IMG/VR virus record: IMGVR_UViG_2778261267_000001
DNA length: 40,147 nucleotides
Strand: one strand, 5' to 3'
From: a virus
Lineage: Duplodnaviria > Heunggongvirae > Uroviricota > Caudoviricetes
Position numbers and translations under genes: made by a program. This document shows positions 1,450 through 40,147 of the stretch, in pieces (the stretch's first letter is position 1; every line of letters begins with the position of its first letter). The notes beneath the pieces were generated by a model that worked only from the letters and a program-made list of their open reading frames with translations, was not told the DNA's origin and did no database searches.

Positions 1450-2108
1450 GCTGCACGCTCCCGCCCCTGGTTGTCTGTTGGTGACAGCGGAGAATTGCTG
1501 AATGCATTTGTTAATCCGCCAATATCCAACGCGTATCCGGGGTGTAGTTGCACTGCCGGGTCTTCACACTGATTACCCCAAACATCGAAACCATGAGACG
1601 TCTGGCGGGCGAACAGTTCAATGCGAGAAACATCGCCTAACAATTGCACAAGTTTTTCACGAACGATATCTGGTTTTCTTGAGTGCTCAAGCCGCGGTGC
1701 GGTAAATGACTGAACGATCCCTGCATTAATGCGCGTAGGTAGTTTTCCCTTTACTGCAAACAGGCAATCTTCACTATTGGCGCGAGTCATGTGTCCCATA
1801 CCCATAACCAGTTTATCTGGTTGTCGACTACCACATTTTATCCACGTGAAGCCCTTCATGGTCATCAGACGGAATCCCCAGGCTTCAACAACTTTTAGTG
1901 CTTCGAGTGGTTGTGTTGGCACCCACCACATGGCCAACAGACAGTTTTCATCGGCCAAATCCCACACAGGAAGGCGGCAGATATCCAGCACACTCATAAC
2001 CGGATATTTAAAACCGGCACCGCGATTACCATCTGCGGCTTTGTCCCGGTATACCCAGGGTGGATCTGCATAGATTAGTGTGTATTTCTTAGTCATAAAC
2101 CACCCCAC
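1446..2108 (-). CDS. MT-A70 family DNA N6-adenine methyltransferase
   Basis: 220-aa ORF with the catalytic DPPW motif (YADPPWVY) near the N-terminus, typical of MT-A70/Dam-like phage methylases. Confidence 0.85.
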   Translation of the reverse strand: MGWFMTKKYTLIYADPPWVYRDKAADGNRGAGFKYPVMSVLDICRLPVWDLADENCLLAMWWVPTQPLEALKVVEAWGFRLMTMKGFTWIKCGSRQPDKLVMGMGHMTRANSEDCLFAVKGKLPTRINAGIVQSFTAPRLEHSRKPDIVREKLVQLLGDVSRIELFARQTSHGFDVWGNQCEDPAVQLHPGYALDIGGLTNAFSNSPLSPTDNQGRERAA

Positions 2109-2388
2109 AACATCCTATGCCGCTATAGTCGCCACGGCGAAGGCCGTTACCTTTTGTGATACATTGGTCCCTTCGAACCGCGATCCTTGCACGCTCAACA
2201 TCACCAGAAGCAACATCCATACGCTGAAGCCAAAGGTGGGCGGCAATGCGGAACTGCCCTTTTTTCTCTCTTTCAATCGCGCGTTTTTCGATCTCTATCG
2301 CCGCAGGAGTAACGGCGACAATCTTTGACGGACTGCGCATTGAAACCTTATTCATGTGATATTTTTCAAGTCGGCTTAACTTTCTCAC
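2089..2388 (-). CDS. Hypothetical phage protein (99 aa)
   Basis: ORF in operon context, 20-nt overlap with the methylase start. No recognised motif. Confidence 0.45.
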   Translation of the reverse strand: MRKLSRLEKYHMNKVSMRSPSKIVAVTPAAIEIEKRAIEREKKGQFRIAAHLWLQRMDVASGDVERARIAVRRDQCITKGNGLRRGDYSGIGCCGVVYD

Positions 2389-4965: not shown

Positions 4966-5042
4966 TTACCGTTGAGGTAATGATTATGCGTATCTGGTTT
5001 GATGTCAATAGATATGAGTTAAAAAAATTACCCATAAGGTAA
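4966..5042. promoter_or_regulatory. Leftward early promoter/operator region (OL-like) with two perfect TTACC-N5-GGTAA palindromes
   Basis: Perfect palindromes at 4966-4980 (TTACCGTTGAGGTAA) and 5028-5042 (TTACCCATAAGGTAA), plus a TTACC half-site at 4953-4957. Located between the repressor terminator and the first leftward gene. Confidence 0.6.
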
Positions 5043-5099: not shown

Positions 5100-5684
5100 T
5101 TATTGTTTGTTTTTTTCGTTCTGGCTGATGACAAATTCAATGTAACTTTCGATCTTTGCCTTCTCTGTTTCGGGTAACAATGCGTAGCGCGAGCGGTCAT
5201 AGTTGATAGTCGCAGGGTCGTGCGGGTGAATCAGTAATTCATAGCCGTGACGCCCGAATGCGGATGCAACATTCTCCAGGGTGGAAATGGAAACGCTGAC
5301 CTCATTGTTTAACAGGCGGCTGATTGTCACCTGGGCGACGCCGGATGCGCGGTGAAGTTTTCCCTGAGTTGAAAGGTCGCGGCTTTCGCTCATCCAGCGT
5401 TCCAGGTTGTGAGCCGCCAGCTGACCAATGTCGCTTGGGCCGACAGGCTGAAAACCTTCCTGAGAAAGCGAGCGATCGATATCAAGCCAGTTACGGGGTT
5501 TATTGGCGGCAGCTTCAATTTTTCGCGCAACCTGGTCGCCGATAACCTTCTTGCCAAGAGCCCAGCGGTTTACCAGATTTGCCTGAGTTCCAAGTTTTTC
5601 TGCCATCCGCGTCTGAACACCATTGAATTCACGGTCGATCAAGTCGTTGAGATTTTGCCTGCGGACGTCCTGGATACTTTTCAT
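5100..5684 (-). CDS. CI-like phage repressor (HTH DNA-binding protein, no obvious peptidase domain)
   Basis: 194-aa ORF divergent from a cro-like gene; HTH-like segments (MAEKLGTQANLVNRW, VAQVTISRLLNNE). Operator-like palindromes lie on both sides of the gene. Confidence 0.7.
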   Translation of the reverse strand: MKSIQDVRRQNLNDLIDREFNGVQTRMAEKLGTQANLVNRWALGKKVIGDQVARKIEAAANKPRNWLDIDRSLSQEGFQPVGPSDIGQLAAHNLERWMSESRDLSTQGKLHRASGVAQVTISRLLNNEVSVSISTLENVASAFGRHGYELLIHPHDPATINYDRSRYALLPETEKAKIESYIEFVISQNEKNKQ

Positions 5685-5739: not shown

Positions 5740-5802
5740 TTACCCAACAGGTAAATGCACCCCATAGGTAACTATCCTTGATTTTTGTTACCTTATGGGT
5801 GA
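5740..5802. promoter_or_regulatory. Divergent immunity promoter/operator region (OR-like) with three tandem operator-like sites
   Basis: Perfect TTACCCAACAGGTAA at 5740-5754, imperfect GCACCCCATAGGTAA at 5756-5770 and TTACCTTATGGGTGA at 5788-5802. A candidate rightward promoter (-35 TTGTTA 5786-5791, -10 TATTAT 5808-5813) overlaps the third site. Confidence 0.65.
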
Positions 5803-8070: not shown

Positions 8071-8147
8071 TTACCTTGCGGGTAATAAAATGTTCTAATT
8101 TCTATTGATTTCATGTCTTATGTGGTTTTTAATTACCTCAGAGGTAA
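8071..8147 (+). promoter_or_regulatory. Regulated internal promoter region: two perfect TTACC-N5-GGTAA palindromes flanking a TATGTGGTT element
   Basis: TTACCTTGCGGGTAA at 8071-8085, TATGTGGTT at 8119-8127, and TTACCTCAGAGGTAA at 8133-8147 (a perfect 15-bp palindrome overlapping the RBS of the 8151 gene). Confidence 0.6.
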
Positions 8148-11635: not shown

Positions 11636-12450
11636 TCACTATTACCAATAAGAAACAGTATCCCAGCGAGCAATATCTTAATGAGCTGATCACCAACATA
11701 GAGTTTGCTGCAAGGGCACCAGTTGAAGTCGTGAGAGCAATGGCAGCAGAGCTACAGAAGCGGCGCGAAGCTGATAGCGCAGAACCAGTTGCTTATATTT
11801 TCAAACATCCGGCCGGGAAATTATTCTGGGCTTTAACGGATGAAAGTAATAAAGAGCAAGCGGACGTTATTCCTGTTTATGCCGCCCCTCCAGTGCCAGT
11901 AGTACCTGAAGAAAAACCAATGCCTAACCCTCTTAAAATGTACGCGGTCGATGCTGTTGCCGCTATTGCAGAGGTGAGAGGCTGGAATGCCTGCCGCGCC
12001 GCCATGCTTCAGGGTAGCCAACCTGTAAGCCAAACTTACAACTTGCCAGAATTAATCGAAGGCATGGAAGTTTCCATTGATGTAAGCACTTGTGATGCTG
12101 ATTTAGGTAATCGCTATTTCGGCACCGTCACCGAGGCGTTAGAACTTGATACAGCCAAGAATGGCTACATCCTCCTGATTCAGGACGCAGAGCCAAACTT
12201 CGATGTAAATGGCAACTCTCCGGTAACTCCGGATGGTTGGATAAGCTGTAGTGAGCGAATGCCGGAAGACACCAAAATGTTACTGGCATTTAGTCAAGGT
12301 GAAATCGTGGCCGCATATTGGAACTGGGTTGTAAATCCAATTGATTACAAAAAATATAGAGCTTTCACGTATTTATCAGGACATATCTTGGATGACGTAA
12401 CTCACTGGATGCCGCTACCGGAACCGCCGCAGGAGGTTAACCGTGGCTAA
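11632..12450 (+). CDS. DUF551-domain phage protein
   Basis: 272-aa ORF; C-terminal segment WISCSERMPE...THWMPLPEPP matches the DUF551 pattern common in enterobacterial prophages. Confidence 0.6.
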   Translation: MITITNKKQYPSEQYLNELITNIEFAARAPVEVVRAMAAELQKRREADSAEPVAYIFKHPAGKLFWALTDESNKEQADVIPVYAAPPVPVVPEEKPMPNPLKMYAVDAVAAIAEVRGWNACRAAMLQGSQPVSQTYNLPELIEGMEVSIDVSTCDADLGNRYFGTVTEALELDTAKNGYILLIQDAEPNFDVNGNSPVTPDGWISCSERMPEDTKMLLAFSQGEIVAAYWNWVVNPIDYKKYRAFTYLSGHILDDVTHWMPLPEPPQEVNRG

Positions 12451-12724
12451 CCTGCAACTTGCCGTCAAAGGTGAATACTTCGATGCCATGATTCGCAGAG
12501 AGAAAACGGAAGAGTATCGCCTGTGTAATGACTACTGGAATAAGCGAATTATGTTCCGGGAGTATGACCGCCTGATTATCACAAAGGGATATCCGAAGCG
12601 CGACGATTCCAGCCGCAGAATTGATGTTCCGTATGACGGATATGAAATCAAGACAATCACACATCCCCACTTCGGCGATAAACCGGTAAAGGTGTTCGCG
12701 ATAAAGGTGAATATTGATGGCTAA
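12443..12724 (+). CDS. ASCH-domain-like small protein
   Basis: 93-aa ORF with GTG start overlapping the upstream stop; N-terminal LQLAVKGEYFDAMIRREKTEEYR resembles ASCH-domain openings. Confidence 0.5.
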   Translation: MANLQLAVKGEYFDAMIRREKTEEYRLCNDYWNKRIMFREYDRLIITKGYPKRDDSSRRIDVPYDGYEIKTITHPHFGDKPVKVFAIKVNIDG

Positions 12725-13055
12725 ATCAGCAGCAGAGCGCAAAGCCGCTCAGAGAGCCAGACAAGCTGAATCCGGTGTGCGTAAGCTGGAAATTGTGCTT
12801 GATGCTCAGGAAATTGAAATGCTGGAGCGTAACTGTGCCACGCGTCGCCCCGGGCGCGCGCCTTACGAATTTGGTGAGTATATAGCGTTACTGATCCGCC
12901 AGGATGATGCACGCGTGCGCGGGCGTATAAAATCGATCAGCAGAAAACGTTGCGGTAAGTGCGGCGAGAGAGTTCCTGTGAATTCATGCCCGTGTAATGG
13001 TGACTCGCAATGCTGGGTGACCAAAGGCTGGCATGAAACGAAATTAATAGTGTGA
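12717..13055 (+). CDS. Hypothetical protein with Cys-rich C-terminus (candidate zinc-binding regulator)
   Basis: 112 aa from ATG 12717; C-terminal CGKCGERVPVNSCPCNGDSQCW cysteine cluster. Confidence 0.5.
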   Translation: MAKSAAERKAAQRARQAESGVRKLEIVLDAQEIEMLERNCATRRPGRAPYEFGEYIALLIRQDDARVRGRIKSISRKRCGKCGERVPVNSCPCNGDSQCWVTKGWHETKLIV

Positions 13056-13072
13056 CATGTCACGAAGGTGTT

Positions 13073-13285
13073 ATGCCAAAAATACGCTACGACCTTGAAG
13101 ATATGAGAGATAACTCAGCAAATTTTCCGAAAGAGGTTAAATTTCTCATGCATAAGTATGGTTGCGCCAGGAGGGATATAGTTATCGACAGTCAGCACCC
13201 TTGCGGCGAGGATGTAATTTTCATTCGCGGTAAATGGGAAGGGTATCTTGACGAGAGTTTTTACGATGAATTTGATGGACTTTGA
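13073..13285 (+). CDS. Hypothetical small protein (70 aa)
   Basis: ORF with GAAGGTG RBS before the ATG at 13073; last gene before a strong terminator. Confidence 0.45.
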   Translation: MPKIRYDLEDMRDNSANFPKEVKFLMHKYGCARRDIVIDSQHPCGEDVIFIRGKWEGYLDESFYDEFDGL

Positions 13286-13290
13286 ATACT

Positions 13291-13317
13291 GCCGCCAACT
13301 ATGGCGGCTTTATTTTG
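13291..13317 (+). terminator. Intrinsic terminator immediately upstream of the small terminase gene
   Basis: GCCGCC-AACTAT-GGCGGC hairpin followed by TTTATTTT; lies inside the track's N-terminal extension of the terS ORF. Confidence 0.7.
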
Positions 13318-13359
13318 CATGGTACTATTACCACAACGGTAACTATTACCACGGTGGTT

Positions 13360-13956
13360 ATGATGCCTGCTGAACCTAAAACCTATAAACGCAAATCAAC
13401 GCAATTTAAGCCACTAACAGCAATGCAGGAGGCTTATTGCCAGTCATACATCAAAACGCCTGAAAACCAGACTCAGGCAGCGATTAACGCAGGATTCTCC
13501 CCAAATACAGCGGCAGTTAAAGCCAGTGTCATGATGCGCGATGAACGCATTCAAAAACGGATTGCCGAGTTGATGGAGGAGCGCAACAAACGAATGCGCG
13601 TCAGTGCTGATTACGTTCTCATGCGCCTGGTGGAGATCGACCAGATGGACGTGATCGACATCCTCAACGACGATGGGAGCCTTAAACCAATCCGTGAGTG
13701 GCCGAAAATCTGGCGCACTACGCTTAGCGGCTTTGATCTGTCATCGACCATCATGAACATGAACGAGGATTCGATAGAGACAATCCTCAAAAAAATTAAA
13801 TGGCCTGACAAGGTGAAGAACCTTGAGCTGATTGGTAAGCATGTTGATGTCAACGCGTTCAAAGAACGCCTGGATGTTAATGTGAATGTGACAATTGCTG
13901 ATCGCATAGCGGCAGCCAGGAAGAGACTGAAAGAACGTCAGGATGGCAATCAGTGA
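13360..13956 (+). CDS. Terminase small subunit
   Basis: 198 aa from the MMPAEPK start (RBS GGTGG); helix-rich small protein immediately upstream of and overlapping the large terminase. Confidence 0.7.
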   Translation: MMPAEPKTYKRKSTQFKPLTAMQEAYCQSYIKTPENQTQAAINAGFSPNTAAVKASVMMRDERIQKRIAELMEERNKRMRVSADYVLMRLVEIDQMDVIDILNDDGSLKPIREWPKIWRTTLSGFDLSSTIMNMNEDSIETILKKIKWPDKVKNLELIGKHVDVNAFKERLDVNVNVTIADRIAAARKRLKERQDGNQ

Positions 13957-15428
13957 CAGATACAGCGTTATCTCCTGAAGAGCAGTTGATCGAGGATATT
14001 GCAGGGTTCACTCACGATCCGCTTGGCTATGCCCTCTATGCGTTCCCGTGGGGGGAAGAGGGGACTGAACTGGCACATGCTACCGGCCCACGTCAGTGGC
14101 AGGCCGATGCGTTCCGAGAGATACGTGATCACCTGCAGAATCCAGAGACGCGCTATCAGCCGCTTATGCTGGCACGCGCTTCTGGTCACGGTATTGGTAA
14201 ATCCGCATTCATCTCAATGCTGATCAACTGGGGCATGTCCACTTGTGAGGATTGTAAGGTCGTGGTGACCGCCAACACCGACAACCAGCTACGAACGAAG
14301 ACTTGGCCGGAAATTATCAAGTGGTCGAACCTTGCTATCACGAAAGACTGGTTTACCTGTACCGCTACCGCGATGTACAGCAATGATCCTGGACACGACA
14401 AGCGGTGGCGAGCTGACGCAATCCCCTGGTCTGAGCACAACACTGAGGCATTCGCCGGACTACACAACGAGCGCAAACGCATCATCGTGGTATTCGATGA
14501 AGCGTCGAACATTGCGGATCTGGTGTGGGAGGTAGCAGAGGGTGCGCTGACGGACGAAGACACCGAAATCATCTGGGTGGCGTTCGGGAACCCGACGCGT
14601 AATACCGGACGTTTCCGCGAATGTTTCCGCAAATATAAACACCGCTGGAAAACTGCGCAGATTGACAGCCGGACGGTGGAAGGCACTAACAAACAGCAGT
14701 TGCAGAAATGGGTTGATGACTACGGGGAAGACAGCGACTTCGTTAAAATCCGTGTGCGTGGCATATTCCCTGATGCATCTGAATTGCAGTTTATCCCTAC
14801 CGGTCTTACTGACGAGGCAATGAAACGGGTGGTAACCGCTGCGCAGGTTGCACATGCTCCGGTGATAATCGGCGTTGACCCGGCATACTCCGGCGTTGAT
14901 GACGCTGTGATATACCTGCGGCAGGGGCTGCACAGTAAGGTGCTATGGACTGGTAACAAGACCACCGACGATCTGATTATGGCGAAGCGTATCGCTGACT
15001 TTGAAGACCAGTATCAGGCTGACGCAGTGTTCATCGACTTTGGTTACGGTACCGGTCTGAAGTCAATCGGTGACGGCTGGGGTCGTACATGGCAACTTGT
15101 TCCGTTCGGCGGTGCGTCTACTGACCCGCAGATGCTCAATAAGCGCGGGGAGATGTTCAATGCATGCAAGACATGGCTGAGGCTGGGCGGCATGCTGGAT
15201 GACCAGGAAACAGCGGACGACCTGTCGGCGGCAGAGTACAAAGTTCGAGTGGACGGTAAAATCGTTATCGAACCGAAGGAAGATATCAAGGAGCGGCTTG
15301 GGCGTTCGCCGGGTAAAGGCGATGCGCTACTGCTGACGTTTGCGTTCCCTGTGTCTAAGCGTCTGCGAATTCCCGGGCAGCAGAACCAGCAAGGCAAGGC
15401 CATCACAGATTACGATCCCTATGCTTAA
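13953..15428 (+). CDS. Terminase large subunit
   Basis: 491-aa ORF with a Walker A-like ATPase motif (ARASGHGIGKS) and a C-terminal nuclease-type region; position after terS. Confidence 0.88.
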   Translation: MTDTALSPEEQLIEDIAGFTHDPLGYALYAFPWGEEGTELAHATGPRQWQADAFREIRDHLQNPETRYQPLMLARASGHGIGKSAFISMLINWGMSTCEDCKVVVTANTDNQLRTKTWPEIIKWSNLAITKDWFTCTATAMYSNDPGHDKRWRADAIPWSEHNTEAFAGLHNERKRIIVVFDEASNIADLVWEVAEGALTDEDTEIIWVAFGNPTRNTGRFRECFRKYKHRWKTAQIDSRTVEGTNKQQLQKWVDDYGEDSDFVKIRVRGIFPDASELQFIPTGLTDEAMKRVVTAAQVAHAPVIIGVDPAYSGVDDAVIYLRQGLHSKVLWTGNKTTDDLIMAKRIADFEDQYQADAVFIDFGYGTGLKSIGDGWGRTWQLVPFGGASTDPQMLNKRGEMFNACKTWLRLGGMLDDQETADDLSAAEYKVRVDGKIVIEPKEDIKERLGRSPGKGDALLLTFAFPVSKRLRIPGQQNQQGKAITDYDPYA

Positions 15429-15475: not shown

Positions 15476-15505
15476 CAAAGCCAGCTCATAGGCTGGCTGT
15501 TTGTG
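15476..15505. terminator. Bidirectional terminator between the terminase operon and the convergent moron gene
   Basis: AGCCAGC-TCATAG-GCTGGCT hairpin flanked by A-rich sequence on one side and T-rich on the other. Confidence 0.65.
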
Positions 15506-15518
15506 ATATGTCACGGTG

Positions 15519-16093: not shown

Positions 16094-16170
16094 TGGCGTG
16101 GCATGCAGGATTCGAACCTGCGACCAACCGCTTAGAAGGCGGTTGCTCTGTCCAACTGAGCTAATGCCAC
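16094..16170 (-). tRNA. tRNA-Arg (anticodon UCU, decodes AGA)
   Basis: 77-nt cloverleaf folded by hand: acceptor GTGGCAT/ATGCCAC, D-stem GCTC/GAGC, anticodon stem ACCGC/GCGGT with loop CTTCTAA (anticodon TCT), T-arm GCAGG-TTCGAAT-CCTGC, discriminator G, encoded CCA. Confidence 0.85.
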
Positions 16171-16491: not shown

Positions 16492-16569
16492 TTACCCAAA
16501 AGGTAATAATTCGTGCGTTAAATGTCAACTACCTACGATAAATAAATCATATGTGGTTAAATTGGTAAT
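16492..16569 (+). promoter_or_regulatory. Candidate late promoter region: TTACC-N5-GGTAA palindrome plus TATGTGGTT-N5-GGTAAT element
   Basis: TTACCCAAAAGGTAA at 16492-16506; TATGTGGTT at 16550-16558 followed by GGTAAT at 16564-16569; about 30 bp upstream of the first virion-block gene. Confidence 0.55.
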
Positions 16570-16596
16570 AATTTAATTGCGTACGGAGTCATTGAT

Positions 16597-16803
16597 ATGT
16601 GCATGGGTAGCTCACCATCAGTGCCTGCAACACCAGAAGTTCAGGCAGCACCACAGGAGCAGGATGCCGCCGTTGTTGATGCCCGCGACGAAGAAACTCG
16701 TCGCCGTCGCGCTGCTGCTGGTCGTAGTTCTACGCTGCTTACCGGTTCTCAGGGCGACACATCAACCGCTAATACCAGCGGTAAAACGCTGCTTGGTCAG
16801 TAA
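16597..16803 (+). CDS. Hypothetical small Ser/Ala-rich protein (68 aa), first gene of the structural block
   Basis: ORF whose translation initiation region (CGGAGTCATTGA-N-ATG) is duplicated exactly in front of the portal gene. Confidence 0.5.
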   Translation: MCMGSSPSVPATPEVQAAPQEQDAAVVDARDEETRRRRAAAGRSSTLLTGSQGDTSTANTSGKTLLGQ

Positions 16804-19496: not shown

Positions 19497-20489
19497 ATGA
19501 CAATGGCTGTTAAAGGCTTAACTGCGCTAACGCTGGCTGACTGGGGTAAGCGCGTCGATCCAAACGGGAAAGTCGATAAGATTATCGAGCTTCTCGGTCA
19601 AACTAACCCGATCCTTCAGGATATGCCTTTTGTCGAAGGGAACCTTCCTACCGGACACCGAACCACCATTCGTTCTGGTTTACCTTCAGCTACCTGGCGT
19701 TTGCTGAACTATGGCGTACAGCCAAGCAAATCAACCACAGTGCAGGTAACCGATTCCGTTGGCATGCTGGAAACCTATGCTGAAGTCGATAAATCACTGG
19801 CTGATCTGAACGGCAATACCGCTGAATTCCGCCTGTCTGAAGACCGCGCATTTATTGAAGCGATGAATCAGCAGATGGCGCAGACGCTGTTTTATGGTGA
19901 TTCCAGCGTTAACCCTCAGCAGTTTATGGGACTGTCCTCCCGCTATTCCAGCCTGTCTGCGGGTAATGCTCAGAACATCATTGATGCTGGTGGCACGGGT
20001 ACAGATAACACCTCAATCTGGTTAGTGGTGTGGGGCGAAAACACCGTGCATGGCATCTTCCCGAAAGGGCAGAAGGCTGGCATCCAGATGGAAGATAAAG
20101 GCCAGGTGACACTGGAAGATGCTAATGGCGGCAAGTACGAAGGCTATCGCACCCATTACAAATGGGACAACGGACTTGCTCTGCGTGACTGGCGTTATGT
20201 TGTTCGCATTGCAAACATCGATGTCAGCAATCTTTCAGAACCTTCCTCTGCCGCAAATATTGCGAAGTTGATGGTTAAAGCACTGCATCGCATTCCAAAC
20301 CGTGGAATGGGTCGCCCGGTGTTCTACATGAACCGCACTGTAGGCCAGGCTCTTGATCTGCAATCTCTGGAGAAAACATCTCTGGCGATCAGCGTAAAAG
20401 AGACAGAAGGCGAGTGGTGGACTTCATTCCGTGGTGTACCAATCCGTGAAACTGATGCGCTTCTGGAAACAGAAGCCCGTGTGGTGTAA
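19497..20489 (+). CDS. Major capsid protein
   Basis: 330-aa ORF after the scaffold gene with a strong RBS (AGAGGAAATGA); assignment by position and size in the portal-scaffold-capsid order. Confidence 0.75.
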   Translation: MTMAVKGLTALTLADWGKRVDPNGKVDKIIELLGQTNPILQDMPFVEGNLPTGHRTTIRSGLPSATWRLLNYGVQPSKSTTVQVTDSVGMLETYAEVDKSLADLNGNTAEFRLSEDRAFIEAMNQQMAQTLFYGDSSVNPQQFMGLSSRYSSLSAGNAQNIIDAGGTGTDNTSIWLVVWGENTVHGIFPKGQKAGIQMEDKGQVTLEDANGGKYEGYRTHYKWDNGLALRDWRYVVRIANIDVSNLSEPSSAANIAKLMVKALHRIPNRGMGRPVFYMNRTVGQALDLQSLEKTSLAISVKETEGEWWTSFRGVPIRETDALLETEARVV

Positions 20490-32770: not shown

Positions 32771-33067
32771 ATGCAAGCTATAGGATTCATTGTTTATATC
32801 GTCGTTGGTCTTTTTCAGTTGGCAGCAATTATGGCTGGGCTTGAATCATGGTGGGGATTGCACTGGATAATTGCAGCCCCCATCGCTTTCATCGTGAGCT
32901 ATATTCCATTTGTTGGAGCGATTGTTGGTATGGTTGGCGCTGTGGATGTATGGCGGTGGGAGTGGTGGCAGGCTGGCCTTCTCTTCTTTGGTGGGATCAT
33001 CTTTGCTATTGTCTGCGGTGGAATGTCATCATTTTTCGAATGGCTATCATTCAGAAAAGGAACGTGA
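32771..33067 (+). CDS. Small integral membrane protein (98 aa)
   Basis: ORF with AGGTG RBS; almost entirely hydrophobic with Trp-rich loops (three or more TM helices); followed by a terminator. Confidence 0.55.
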   Translation: MQAIGFIVYIVVGLFQLAAIMAGLESWWGLHWIIAAPIAFIVSYIPFVGAIVGMVGAVDVWRWEWWQAGLLFFGGIIFAIVCGGMSSFFEWLSFRKGT

Positions 33068-33075
33068 CATGTCAC

Positions 33076-33100: not shown

Positions 33101-33374
33101 ATGTAGTTTGTTTTCGTAATTGTTCGGCACAATAGTCGAGATGTGTTTGCAGATCCTGCATAGACATCTGTGAGCTGGTGACGTAGTTAATCAGTGCAGT
33201 CAGTTCGGCAAGTGGGCCATCGACATTAAATCCATCCTTATCGAGATCCCGGAGTAATTTCATCAAGTGCGATCCATCCACCAGTGACCTGACGCCTCCC
33301 GGCGTGTGAATCCTTTCGGTAAATCCGTCTTCCAGTGGATAGTGATACTGCTGCATCTTATCTTCTCCATGCAA
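33099..33374 (-). CDS. Hypothetical protein (91 aa), divergent from the tailspike gene
   Basis: ORF convergent with the membrane-protein genes and sharing a 177-bp divergent control region with the tailspike gene; no motif recognised. Confidence 0.45.
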   Translation of the reverse strand: MHGEDKMQQYHYPLEDGFTERIHTPGGVRSLVDGSHLMKLLRDLDKDGFNVDGPLAELTALINYVTSSQMSMQDLQTHLDYCAEQLRKQTT

Positions 33375-33432
33375 TAACTGTATATTTATACAGTATCAAA
33401 TAATTTGTTTGCTATCCAGCACGTTTTGCGAA

Positions 33433-33498
33433 TTACCTGAAAGGTAATATCTATTCGTGTTTATGGGTTATCTATCCATATGTGGTTTTTAAGGTAAT
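33433..33498. promoter_or_regulatory. Tailspike / divergent-gene control region: TTACC-N5-GGTAA palindrome plus TATGTGGTT-N5-GGTAAT element
   Basis: TTACCTGAAAGGTAA at 33433-33447; TATGTGGTT at 33479-33487; GGTAAT at 33493-33498. Confidence 0.55.
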
Positions 33499-36836: not shown

Positions 36837-37046
36837 TTAAATAACCCTCTGCTTAATAATATTTTTACATAACTGTAAGTTATTTTGATTCTCATAAGAA
36901 CCAATGGTTTTTAGAAAACCACCACAAGCAAATCGAAGTTTATCACCTTTGGGGTAATTGCGGTAGAATTGGTATGACGTTTTTTGAACCGCATATGGTT
37001 TATTGTGTATGATGAACTCATCAATAAGTTGGTTCTTCATGCACAT
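36837..37046 (-). CDS. Hypothetical small protein (69 aa) upstream of the acyltransferase - doubtful
   Basis: AT-rich ORF abutting the acyltransferase start; a near-operator palindrome (36943-36957) lies inside it, so this may be promoter DNA rather than a gene. Confidence 0.3.
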   Translation of the reverse strand: MCMKNQLIDEFIIHNKPYAVQKTSYQFYRNYPKGDKLRFACGGFLKTIGSYENQNNLQLCKNIIKQRVI

Positions 37047-38859: not shown

Positions 38860-39004
38860 CATGGCATTTTTCATGGTACTGATTTCCTGTGACGGTATAT
38901 AAAACGGTACGAGGAAAATTTAGCTTTAGAAAAGTGTTATCACTCAATTGGTTATGGCGTCCGTAAATAATTGAGTGGGAATGATTTGATCCTGCACTAT
39001 GAAT

Positions 39005-39038
39005 GAACAAAACCCTCTGTTACTACAGAGGGTTTTTT
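39005..39038. terminator. Bidirectional intrinsic terminator at the putative prophage right boundary
   Basis: ACCCTCTGT-TACT-ACAGAGGGT hairpin flanked by AACAAAA on one side and TTTTTT on the other. Confidence 0.7.
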
Positions 39039-39076
39039 ATCTTCAAGAATCATAGGCTTGAAGTTAGTAACATCGA

Positions 39077-39616
39077 TTAATTAAACCAGCTGTCCGATTT
39101 GTTCTCTTCTGCTTTGCCCACGCTTTTCATCAGATCGCGACCGCCTTCAGTCATATTTCTGTTGGCGTCAGCTTCAGATTGCACCACATCGGTTTGCGCA
39201 GCTTTGTGCTTCAGTTCCTGATCGATAAATTCGTTTTCGCGCTTAACGCGGGCTTCTTCTTTTGCCAGCGCCAGTTTTTGTTTCTGAATCTCTAAGCTGC
39301 GTAGCTCATCTTCATAACTTTGATCGCGTTTTTTGTCCGCAGTGGCTTCGGCGTCCAGTTTATCCTGACGAGCTTTCTTATTTGCCGCTGCCGTTGCCGC
39401 TCTTTTGTTAGCGGCGGCCTGGGCATTTGCGCGACGTTGCTTCTCTTGCTGGATTTCCCTGTTGCGCTCCGCGACCCATTCGTCATGCTGCCTTTGCTCT
39501 TCATTTTTACCTTGCTGTTCCGCTTCTGCGACAGCAGAGAGTTGATCCTGCAATGATGAGGCGATAGCCGGATAGCTTAAGGAGGCTAAGATGGCGCAAA
39601 GAAAAACTTTCTTCAT
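39077..39616 (-). CDS. Exported coiled-coil protein (signal peptide; Gln/Lys/Ala-rich)
   Basis: 179-aa ORF with a signal peptide (MKKVFLCAILASLSYPAIA) and a highly charged helical body; may be host flank or prophage cargo. Confidence 0.55.
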   Translation of the reverse strand: MKKVFLCAILASLSYPAIASSLQDQLSAVAEAEQQGKNEEQRQHDEWVAERNREIQQEKQRRANAQAAANKRAATAAANKKARQDKLDAEATADKKRDQSYEDELRSLEIQKQKLALAKEEARVKRENEFIDQELKHKAAQTDVVQSEADANRNMTEGGRDLMKSVGKAEENKSDSWFN

Positions 39617-39631
39617 GACTCCTCCTGATTA

Positions 39632-40147
39632 TTAGCTCTTTTCAGGACATTTGGTATTTGGCTGAATACGCGTTTCGTTATACGTCGTGGTAATAACAAC
39701 GGCTAAACCTGTCGTAAACTGGCACTCTTTACCCACCTGGGTAGAGGTATACACTTTGGTGCCTTCCTTATAGGTTAAAGAAACACCTTCCACTAAGGTT
39801 TTATCATTCACCATAGAACCCGCTGCCGCGCCTACAGCTCCGCCGCCAACTGCACCTGCCGTCGTTCCGGAATTGCTGCCAGACCCGACGTTGTGGCCGA
39901 TAACACCGCCAGCGACTGCGCCAATAAGCGCGCCGAAGGCTTGTGCGTTCCGTTTATTTTGGGAGTTGTCTACGGCAACTTTTGCGGGAAGAATGGAAAT
40001 AATATTAACGGTTTTAGTTTCTTGTTTGGTATTCAGTTGATCGGTTTGATAAACATCGGCAGCATGATCGTCAGCATTTGACTGGCATCCTGCCAGAGTG
40101 AATGACGCTAACATTGCCACAGGCAGAAGACATTTTTTAAATTTCAT
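39632..40147 (-). CDS. Glycine-zipper outer-membrane lipoprotein (YcfJ-like family)
   Basis: 171-aa ORF starting at the last base of the window; lipobox (LAGCQ) and a GxxxG glycine-zipper block (GALIGAVAGGVIGHNVGSG) resembling E. coli YcfJ-type lipoproteins. Confidence 0.6.
   Translation of the reverse strand: MKFKKCLLPVAMLASFTLAGCQSNADDHAADVYQTDQLNTKQETKTVNIISILPAKVAVDNSQNKRNAQAFGALIGAVAGGVIGHNVGSGSNSGTTAGAVGGGAVGAAAGSMVNDKTLVEGVSLTYKEGTKVYTSTQVGKECQFTTGLAVVITTTYNETRIQPNTKCPEKS

Follow-up and report, generated by a model that had tools for sequence, protein, structure and literature searches.

A predicted terminator and paired candidate repressor operators at the border between the early-right and packaging genes of an epsilon15/phiV10-type prophage

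The DNA analysed here (IMG/VR record IMGVR_UViG_2778261267_000001; 40,147 nucleotides [nt], hereafter the window) is, by its sequence, an integrated prophage of the epsilon15/phiV10 type (Uetakevirus), and the element in question is the short interval at 13286-13360, directly upstream of the small terminase gene terS. Genes within the window are ordered int, early-left, repressor, cro, replication, accessory genes, terS, terL, portal through to tailspike, and lysis. The region shares 97-98% identity with phiV10, the O157 typing phages 9 and 10, TL-2011b, and ZX5, with epsilon15-type phages being more distant. The right end of the prophage is marked by a ATTGAGTGGGAATGATT attachment core (attR; core sequence from PMC9782041) at 38970-38986; the integrase gene opens the window, and the last ~1.2 kb (38987-40147) is host DNA.

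Seventy-seven bases separate the stop (13285) of an open reading frame (ORF) of 70 amino acids (aa) from terS. ATG codons occur at both 13360 and 13363, and the second is the likely terS start because it lies 5 nt past the Shine-Dalgarno (SD) sequence GGTGG and corresponds, in alignments, to the only ATG that relatives have. The interval opens with an intrinsic terminator-like hairpin on the coding (+) strand, beginning 6 nt past the stop of the ORF at 13073-13285. Its stem (13291-13308) reads GCCGCC-AACT-(A)TGGCGGC, comprising 7 bp, six of them G-C pairs, and the 4-nt loop AACT; the T-run TTTATTTTG follows directly on the 3′ side. This was the top terminator-like match in a scan of 8-18 kb. 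Folded alone, it reaches -13.8 kcal/mol (z = -3.1), with none of 200 shuffled sequences being as stable. The initial annotation of this DNA had placed a terminator at 13291-13317, dividing the accessory genes from terS, and the hairpin, its T-run, and its z-score bear this out.

Repeated sequence occupies the space between the terminator and terS. The exact direct repeat is the 11-nt ACTATTACCAC, at 13324-13334 and 13342-13352. The initial annotation had reported a shorter direct repeat, TATTACCAC, the first copy of which is indeed at 13326-13334; the second lies at 13344-13352, and not at 13345-13353 as proposed. It had also correctly located a GGTAA-CTA-TTACC inverted repeat at 13338-13350, but this is not the key repeat: the relevant unit is TTACC-N5-GGTAA, present twice, and the repeats are best described as a pair of 15-bp palindromes with this pattern, termed O1 and O2 (Table 1). 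The same unit is found at the promoters PL and PR, which upholds the earlier view that the repeats are made of immunity-region operator half-sites. O2 overlaps the predicted transcription start, the SD sequence GGTGG (13353-13357), and the first ATG.

Across the window, there are 11 matches to the palindrome (eight exact and three with one mismatch) vs 0.68 expected, a number that none of 100 shuffles reached. All 11 are intergenic, and intergenic DNA makes up 7.45% of the window (P ~4e-13). These figures point to a palindrome class that is real and regulatory, far beyond chance. At PL and PR, the operator overlaps either the -10 element and start or the -35 element and spacer of the promoter found by consensus scan: site 5788 lies inside PR (TTGTTA-17-TATTAT), and site 5740 lies approximately 30 nt upstream of PR.

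Table 1. Coordinates of the features discussed (window positions unless a locus or phage is named; terminator, promoter, and operator assignments are predictions).
Feature	Position	Strand	Remarks
Intrinsic (Rho-independent) terminator-like hairpin	13291..13317	+	Ends early-right/accessory operon
Candidate -35, ATGGTA	13319..13324	+	Putative; ends 3 nt before O1
Operator O1, TTACCACAACGGTAA	13328..13342		Exact TTACC-N5-GGTAA
Candidate -10, AACTAT	13341..13346	+	Putative; starts at AA of O1 right half-site, 16 nt past the -35-like hexamer
Operator O2, TTACCACGGTGGTTA (TTACC-ACGGT-GGTTA)	13346..13360		One mismatch; centre 18 bp from that of O1
terS, small terminase subunit	13363..13956	+	Pfam Terminase_2, E 1e-29; phrog_51; first gene under the O1/O2 element
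terL, large terminase subunit	13953..15428	+	From ORF list and annotation of relatives; overlaps terS; hairpin 15479-15498 downstream
Rep, prophage repressor	5100..5684	-	194 aa; HTH_3; presumed TTACC-N5-GGTAA binder
Ant, antirepressor homologue	33102..33353	-	87% identity to SPC32H Ant
OL pair	4966-4980, 5028-5042		62 bp apart; flank PL (TTGACA-17-AATCAT, - strand)
OR	5740-5754, 5788-5802 (one mismatch)		Between rep and cro-like gene
Mid-early pair	8071-8085, 8133-8147		Flank TTGATT-17-TTTAAT, upstream of DUF1064/resolvase-like gene (8151)
Portal operator	16492..16506		Upstream of small ORF and portal operon; homologue annotated at epsilon15 2931-2947
ant/tailspike operator	33433..33447		Between ant (-) and tailspike gene (+); homologue annotated at epsilon15 19895-19911
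Lysis operator	36943..36957		One mismatch; upstream of lysis cassette (37053); exact homologue at epsilon15 24704
112-aa Cys/His-rich candidate regulator (epsilon15 gp49 family)	12717..13055	+	phrog_536 'transcriptional regulator'; last conserved early-right gene
GTGACATGTCAC palindrome	13052..13063		Overlaps TGA stop of 112-aa gene; candidate binding site
70-aa accessory ORF	13073..13285	+	phrog_1541; between GTGACATGTCAC palindrome and terminator
GTGACATGTCAC in locus L013	39612, 2142, 19517		
GTGACATGTCAC in locus L014	38629, 2145, 19634		
GTGAC-N2-GTCAC in other phages	L182 3285; L184 3267 / L237 39269, 28550, 33237; L185 3505, 6220; L186-L236		

In the RefSeq record of epsilon15 (NC_004775.2), seven copies of (A)TTACC-N5-GGTAAT are labelled 'protein_bind: repressor; lysogeny', a predicted annotation. 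Among these are the O1 homologue (epsilon15 12-27), directly before terS, as well as sites ahead of the portal operon, of the tail-fibre gene, and of the resolvase gene, and in the OL region; no label is given there to O2, to three OR sites, to the second mid-early site, or to the site upstream of lysis. A 'rho-independent terminator' at epsilon15 39646-39672 is the homologue of 13291-13317. Terminator and O1 together are an already predicted feature of the epsilon15 phage group. The order of elements in epsilon15 is that of the window, namely the terminator GGCCGCCgactatGGCGGC-TTTGTTTT, then TTACCAAAACGGTAAT, a second near-palindrome, and terS. The two differ in that the window belongs to the phiV10/TL-2011b clade, in that an additional ORF, of 70 aa, separates its gp49-like gene from the terminator, and in that the O2 mismatch falls in the right half-site in the window but in the left in epsilon15. 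In SPC32H, also a Uetakevirus, these palindromes stand at corresponding places, among them 12-26 before terS.

Direct repeats immediately upstream of terS could also be recognition repeats for the small terminase, in the manner of a pac or cosB site. In lambda, cosB lies immediately upstream of terS, and several deposited genomes are numbered from near the repeats. The record starts nevertheless differ between phages (~13242, 13262, and 13281 in window coordinates), and this has the look of convention, not of physical ends; the motif occurs at nine other promoter-associated places, including the immunity region, and the epsilon15 annotators gave the site to the repressor. A packaging site is thus barely credible.

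Conservation was followed in a terS-upstream set of 182 loci, which reduce to 103 distinct sequences; the 95 of these that have O1 form the comparison set. Within O1, the ten half-site positions each show the same base in 94-95 of the 95 sequences, while the five spacer positions take three to four different bases. Fixed half-sites together with a free spacer are characteristic of recognition by a symmetric DNA-binding protein. Seventy-nine of the 95 have an O2 with a single mismatch; where O2 has two mismatches or fewer (n = 82), it takes the form TTACC..GGTTA in 47 and TTACT..GGTAA in 35, with the SD sequence inside the O2 spacer. One lineage set has its O2 mismatch in the left half (TTACT) and the other in the right (GGTTA), as if a weakened site were selected. 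TL-2011b and prophages of ten Enterobacterales species have palindromes at homologous places, among them an exact copy at -35/-36 and a one-mismatch copy at -17/-18 from the terS start. An IMG/VR scan with the window terS, which matched 100%-identical proteins only, served for micro-polymorphism, and the scan was repeated with the terS proteins of locus L010 and of epsilon15. Near-identical E. coli prophages vary in both spacers, in the linker of 3 nt, and in the bases that precede O1, with one sequence having a half-site change.

A near-identical terminator is found in 72 of the 95 sequences and is absent from 23; the constant feature is therefore the operators, the terminator not being universal. 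In the 72, its stem is almost invariant, with three one-sided changes only, two of which produce G-U pairs while one breaks a pair. The interval from the 112-aa gene to O1 is evidently a slot for accessory genes: it holds the 70-aa ORF in the window, an 8-codon remnant (M-x-D-E-F-D-G/V-F) in many relatives, and nothing in epsilon15. The remnant is in frame and lies just before the terminator in loci L001, L005, L006, L008, and L010.

Control at the level of RNA has also to be weighed. The tandem palindromes fold into a hairpin at 13321-13367 (-16.9 kcal/mol, z -2.75) that would bury the terS SD sequence and AUG and could serve as a translational operator or attenuator; across 13270-13375, the fold reaches -36.9 kcal/mol (z -5.3), again with SD sequence and AUG paired. 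Such structure, however, arises automatically where two palindromes lie side by side. The leader of the epsilon15 type folds differently and not significantly (z -1.15), and the half-sites are invariant and show no covariation. In addition, the same 15-mer accompanies promoters of either strand and also stands ahead of -35 elements, outside the transcribed sequence, and an Rfam scan of the whole window matched tRNA only, with no match at the terS leader. RNA-level control is consequently very unlikely.

The presumed reader of the palindromes is the prophage repressor, Rep, which matches the Rep of SPC32H (PDB 5D50) over its full length (E 4e-42, 42% identity). An N-terminal helix, (Q/A/P)NLV(N/S)RW, is conserved in 13 Reps that share 41-99% identity, and this fits the unchanged half-sites. 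Pfam places helix-turn-helix-like regions in Rep at residues 21-61 (below the curated cutoff) and 104-148 (HTH_3, above the cutoff). Rep of SPC32H is reported to bind palindromic sites as a tetramer, with DNA-binding pairs drawn from different dimers, and to be removed by tetrameric Ant (PMC9638917, PMC9986798). The repressor of ZX5, described as identical in sequence to phiV10 ORF40, abolished free phage when overexpressed and lowered holin and endolysin transcripts by ~99.97-99.99% (PMC9782041); this protein is identical to the Rep of the window. CI, Cro, and the 112-aa protein are present in all relatives compared, and hence presence or absence cannot point to the binder.

Upstream of ant lies a perfect LexA box, CTGTATATTTATACAG, at 33378-33393. 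The window thereby resembles the Rep-Ant-LexA switch of SPC32H (PDB 5D50/5D4Z) in having a homologous Rep and a LexA-boxed Ant, and induction is expected to proceed via LexA and Ant, as described for SPC32H, and not via repressor cleavage. Published SPC32H work, in the portions relayed by two later papers, covers the structure of Rep and Ant and the immunity region (Kim et al. 2016 via PMC9638917 and PMC9986798).

Comparison with other operator-bearing promoters suggests how O1 and O2 might act on terS. Immediately before O1, positions -11 to -1 read G-C-R-T-G-N-T-A-N-T-A and are nearly invariant, both in the 72 sequences with the terminator and in the 23 without it. The -10-like hexamer of the 95 sequences is AACTAT in 37, AATTAT in 32, AACAAT in nine, and AATAAA in nine, with AATAAT also seen; its second position is A in all 95 and its sixth is T in 82. 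At PR of epsilon15 (TTGATT-16-AATAAT), the whole spacer is taken up by the operator, and the -10 begins at the AA of GGTAA. The mid-early promoter of L010 (TTGACA-17-AATTAT, flagged at 10/12) has its -10 starting at the same AA, in the register seen at terS, and the placement of the candidate terS -35 matches the -35 of both promoters. Upstream of the mid-early gene, loci L009-L011 have the order terminator, -35, O1, 3 nt, O2/SD, ATG, a compact layout like that of the terS region; most relatives have instead an operator, TTGATT-17-TTTAAT, an operator/SD, and the ATG. A weak, Rep-occluded terS promoter, starting near 13353 and giving a leader of ~10 nt, is hence probable. The initial annotation had left a choice between read-through control and a very compact promoter; the comparative evidence favours the latter, with two operators over it as at PR and PL and as at a strong mid-early promoter of one relative.

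We therefore favour, at a probability of roughly 0.55, a reading in which the terminator ends the early-right operon and O1/O2 lie over a weak, compact terS-terL promoter of the sigma-70 type that would be occluded by Rep until Ant removes it. The sequence features themselves, with their enrichment, intergenic positions, and conservation, are shown directly, as are the homology of Rep and Ant and the earlier epsilon15 annotation; Rep binding at O1 and O2, the presence of the promoter, and the efficiency of the terminator are what we infer from the letters of the window and its relatives. The interval 13286-13360 would then form the border between the early-right operon and the packaging operon, with the terminator stopping PR transcripts that arrive through the replication and accessory genes. 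In the lysogen, Rep on O1 and O2 would block both initiation at, and read-through into, terS-terL. Upon DNA damage, LexA would be cleaved and the LexA-boxed ant expressed; Ant would strip Rep off all operators at once, directly freeing terS-terL, the portal operon, the tailspike gene, and the lysis cassette. Release of the late genes would thus proceed without a Q- or N-type antiterminator.

Several points weigh against this reading. Late timing is left unexplained by it. The consensus promoter scan flagged nothing at 13300-13360, and ATGGTA-16-AACTAT scores 6/12 (3/6 for each hexamer), which is weak. The conserved bases before O1 could extend a protein-binding site instead of being a -35 element, and Cro-like and other regulators may use the same operators. 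Compensatory stem changes were not found in the 72 terminator-bearing sequences, so that conservation of the terminator could reflect recent common descent, and read-through from upstream is possible, at least in the 23 relatives that lack it.

An alternative is a roadblock or insulator with no local promoter. Transcription of terS-terL would then come by read-through from PR or another promoter; Rep at O1/O2 would block the polymerase, stoperator-like, or would anchor looping to OR/OL, and the terminator would only attenuate. In the 23 terminator-less sequences, a different upstream gene ends ~25 nt before O1; that of L002 (9540-9942 in the accessory slot) is a UmuD'-like moron with a TTGACT...TATACT promoter of its own and a LexA box. 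The poor candidate -35 and -10 elements also suit a roadblock, as does the tetramerisation domain of Rep, which has been described as a DNA-looping fold (PMC9986798). Where present, however, the terminator is strong with a good T-run (72 of 95, including the window), and no antiterminator gene was found among the early proteins scanned. The 11 nt before O1 are conserved regardless of upstream content, and the L010 mid-early gene, which has the same compact layout, possesses a consensus promoter. A roadblock alone is for these reasons judged unlikely, and an occluded promoter at terS is preferred.

Scans of Pfam, PHROGs, and NCBIfam with 20 early proteins, plus an NCBIfam-only set that included ant, did not find a Q- or N-type antiterminator family, in keeping with the earlier remark that no antiterminator gene is obvious. 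A consensus scan gave no promoter-like site on the + strand at 11800-13300, nor was there a qut-like site before the terminator. Late control in lambda depends on the antiterminator Q, with pR′ and tR′; there is a terminator between its early and late genes, and its late operon lacks a repressor operator of its own. The window resembles lambda in having a terminator between early and late genes with a small regulator gene just upstream. It differs in that no Q/N family was found in the early proteins scanned, in having no strong constitutive promoter or qut-like site before the terminator, and in that each late operon has its own repressor operator.

The small gene concerned encodes the 112-aa Cys/His-rich protein of the epsilon15 gp49 family; in each of the 11 loci L001-L011, it is found a short way ahead of terS. 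The protein has a basic N terminus and an invariant set of residues (C40, C79, C82, C91, C93, and H106), a pattern that fits metal binding. No match to it was found in Pfam, NCBIfam, or PDB; an AlphaFold2 model built from a 36-sequence alignment was poor (predicted local distance difference test 61) and was left unused, and Foldseek against PDB gave nothing below E = 7. The initial annotation had proposed this protein as a zinc-binding regulator. The ORF exists, with invariant Cys/His residues, and the protein is a plausible DNA-binding regulator; the palindrome associated with it, however, is GTGAC-N2-GTCAC, not the repeats before terS.

In the window, this second palindrome, GTGACATGTCAC, overlaps the stop of the 112-aa gene. 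It recurs exactly at 33064-33075, where it overlaps the stop of the final ORF in the structural operon and is followed, 2 nt on, by a bidirectional terminator, and with one mismatch at 15503-15514, 4 nt past the hairpin that follows terL. Its copies thus lie at the 3′ ends of three successive rightward operons, after the 112-aa gene, terL, and the last structural ORF, each beside a hairpin or terminator. In both epsilon15 and SPC32H, all three of these junctions have an exact copy, unannotated in the epsilon15 record. An exact copy is present within 1.5 kb upstream of terS in 158 of the 177 related loci and downstream of terL in 116 of them, with ~0.1 expected in 1.79 Mb. As RNA, the palindrome folds weakly (-2.9 kcal/mol, z 0.06), which speaks against a nut-type hairpin upstream of the terminator.

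GTGAC-N2-GTCAC also accompanies homologues of the protein in unrelated phages. In ZF40, a Pectobacterium myovirus, it lies 3 nt past the stop of the gp22 homologue; in N15, it overlaps the stop of the gp46 homologue, and N15 has three copies vs 0.04 expected. Of the 51 loci retrieved by way of the N15 and Vibrio homologues, 49 have it at the gene's stop, and Vibrio phage K303 has two copies, one of them ~30 nt before terS. Across these phages, the half-sites are constant, while the central dinucleotide is AT, TG, AC, GC, CC, or GG. The locus of a homologue in a Yersinia P2-like phage (L183) has no copy within 6 kb, and TTACC-N5-GGTAA was not found in the ZF40, N15, and Vibrio loci examined. 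The distribution suggests that GTGAC-N2-GTCAC may be the binding site of the 112-aa protein family. A promoter beside GTGACATGTCAC was also considered: GTGACA-17-TAAATT is possible in epsilon15 and is unconserved in the window or in TL-2011b-type sequences, and it was dropped.

From these parts, a Q-like early-to-late switch could be assembled, in which the 112-aa protein would bind GTGACATGTCAC and pass polymerase through the terminator at 13291-13317, or would activate a promoter. It would fit that this gene comes last among the conserved early genes of all relatives, that the protein joins a basic N terminus to an invariant Cys/His cluster, and that the palindrome recurs beside hairpins at two more operon ends and adjoins the ZF40, N15, and Vibrio homologues, with the second copy in K303 close to terS. 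Yet the searches of Pfam, NCBIfam, PDB, and Foldseek revealed no homology to known antiterminators or activators. N15 possesses, besides gp46, its own late regulator, gp40, described as a putative Q-like antiterminator (PMC4488713) and annotated 'late transcription activator', so that the family is not needed as a late switch there. The window has no convincing promoter beside the palindrome, spacing between palindrome and terminator ranges from 22 to >230 nt, and the terminator is missing in a quarter of the relatives that keep the gene. As the switch for terS-terL, the 112-aa protein is thus improbable.

A further role is conceivable, if on the doubtful side: the epsilon15-gp49/N15-gp46 proteins (~110 aa) might constitute a new family of DNA-binding regulators, with GTGAC-N2-GTCAC as operator, that in Uetakeviruses modulates termination or read-through at three operon ends, including the 13291-13317 terminator. 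If true, the family would add a second layer of control on top of Rep. A second palindrome travelling with the gp49/gp46 family across unrelated phages is the only part of the present analysis that may lead somewhere new.

Release of an occluded terS promoter from Rep, which remains the preferred reading, has partial counterparts in better-known phages. At OR and OL of lambda, P22, and 434, adjacent, graded palindromic operators with a central spacer of 3 bp lie over the -35, -10, and start. The window likewise has adjacent, graded operators over these elements, and its half-site TATTACC resembles the lambda TATCACC, but the spacer is 5 bp, the presumed binder is tetrameric and of a different fold, and arrays occur outside the immunity region. 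In mycobacteriophages L5 and L1, repressor sites are asymmetric, ~13 bp long, numerous, and often inside operons in one orientation. Those of the window are, by contrast, symmetric 15-bp palindromes, about a dozen in number and all at operon starts. What is shared is the presence of many sites for one prophage repressor genome-wide, including the late region; the L5/L1 repressor is described as having many dispersed operators or 'stoperators' (PMC1934351).

In the phiV10/epsilon15/SPC32H prophages, a widespread group in E. coli and Salmonella, the packaging genes carry a predicted repressor operator at their start, like every other operon. The lysis-lysogeny switch accordingly appears to gate the late genes directly via Rep and Ant, and not by a lambda-style antitermination cascade. 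This is useful for engineering phiV10- or SPC32H-based reporter phages and for annotating such prophages. The result is a modest one and introduces no new principle, homologous sites having been predicted earlier in the epsilon15 record.

Some further observations concern other parts of the window. At 2089-2388 (-), the early-left operon includes a gene whose PerC-like product, a 'transcriptional activator' (Pfam PerC, PHROG 868), is a further candidate for late activation. A tRNA-Arg gene (anticodon TCT) is located at 16094-16170 (-), between terL and the portal operon, as it is in SPC32H. The motif (A/T)TATGTGGTT occurs at 8118-8127, 16549-16558, and 33478-33487, 30-44 nt downstream of the distal operator of the mid-early, portal, and tailspike regions, respectively. 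There it immediately precedes a -10-like element or a GGTAA half-site; its enrichment is modest, with six matches vs 2.5 expected.

The stretch from the portal operator to the small ORF at 16597 (16492-16600) is nearly invariant in ten species (L001-L010), its flanks having diverged. It contains, in order, the operator, GTCAAT, CTACG, AAATAA, ATATGTGGTTAAATTGGTAATAATTTAA, an SD sequence, and the ATG. This arrangement resembles a complex late promoter with no recognisable -35 element, and the epsilon15 record places both integration host factor (IHF) and repressor sites there.

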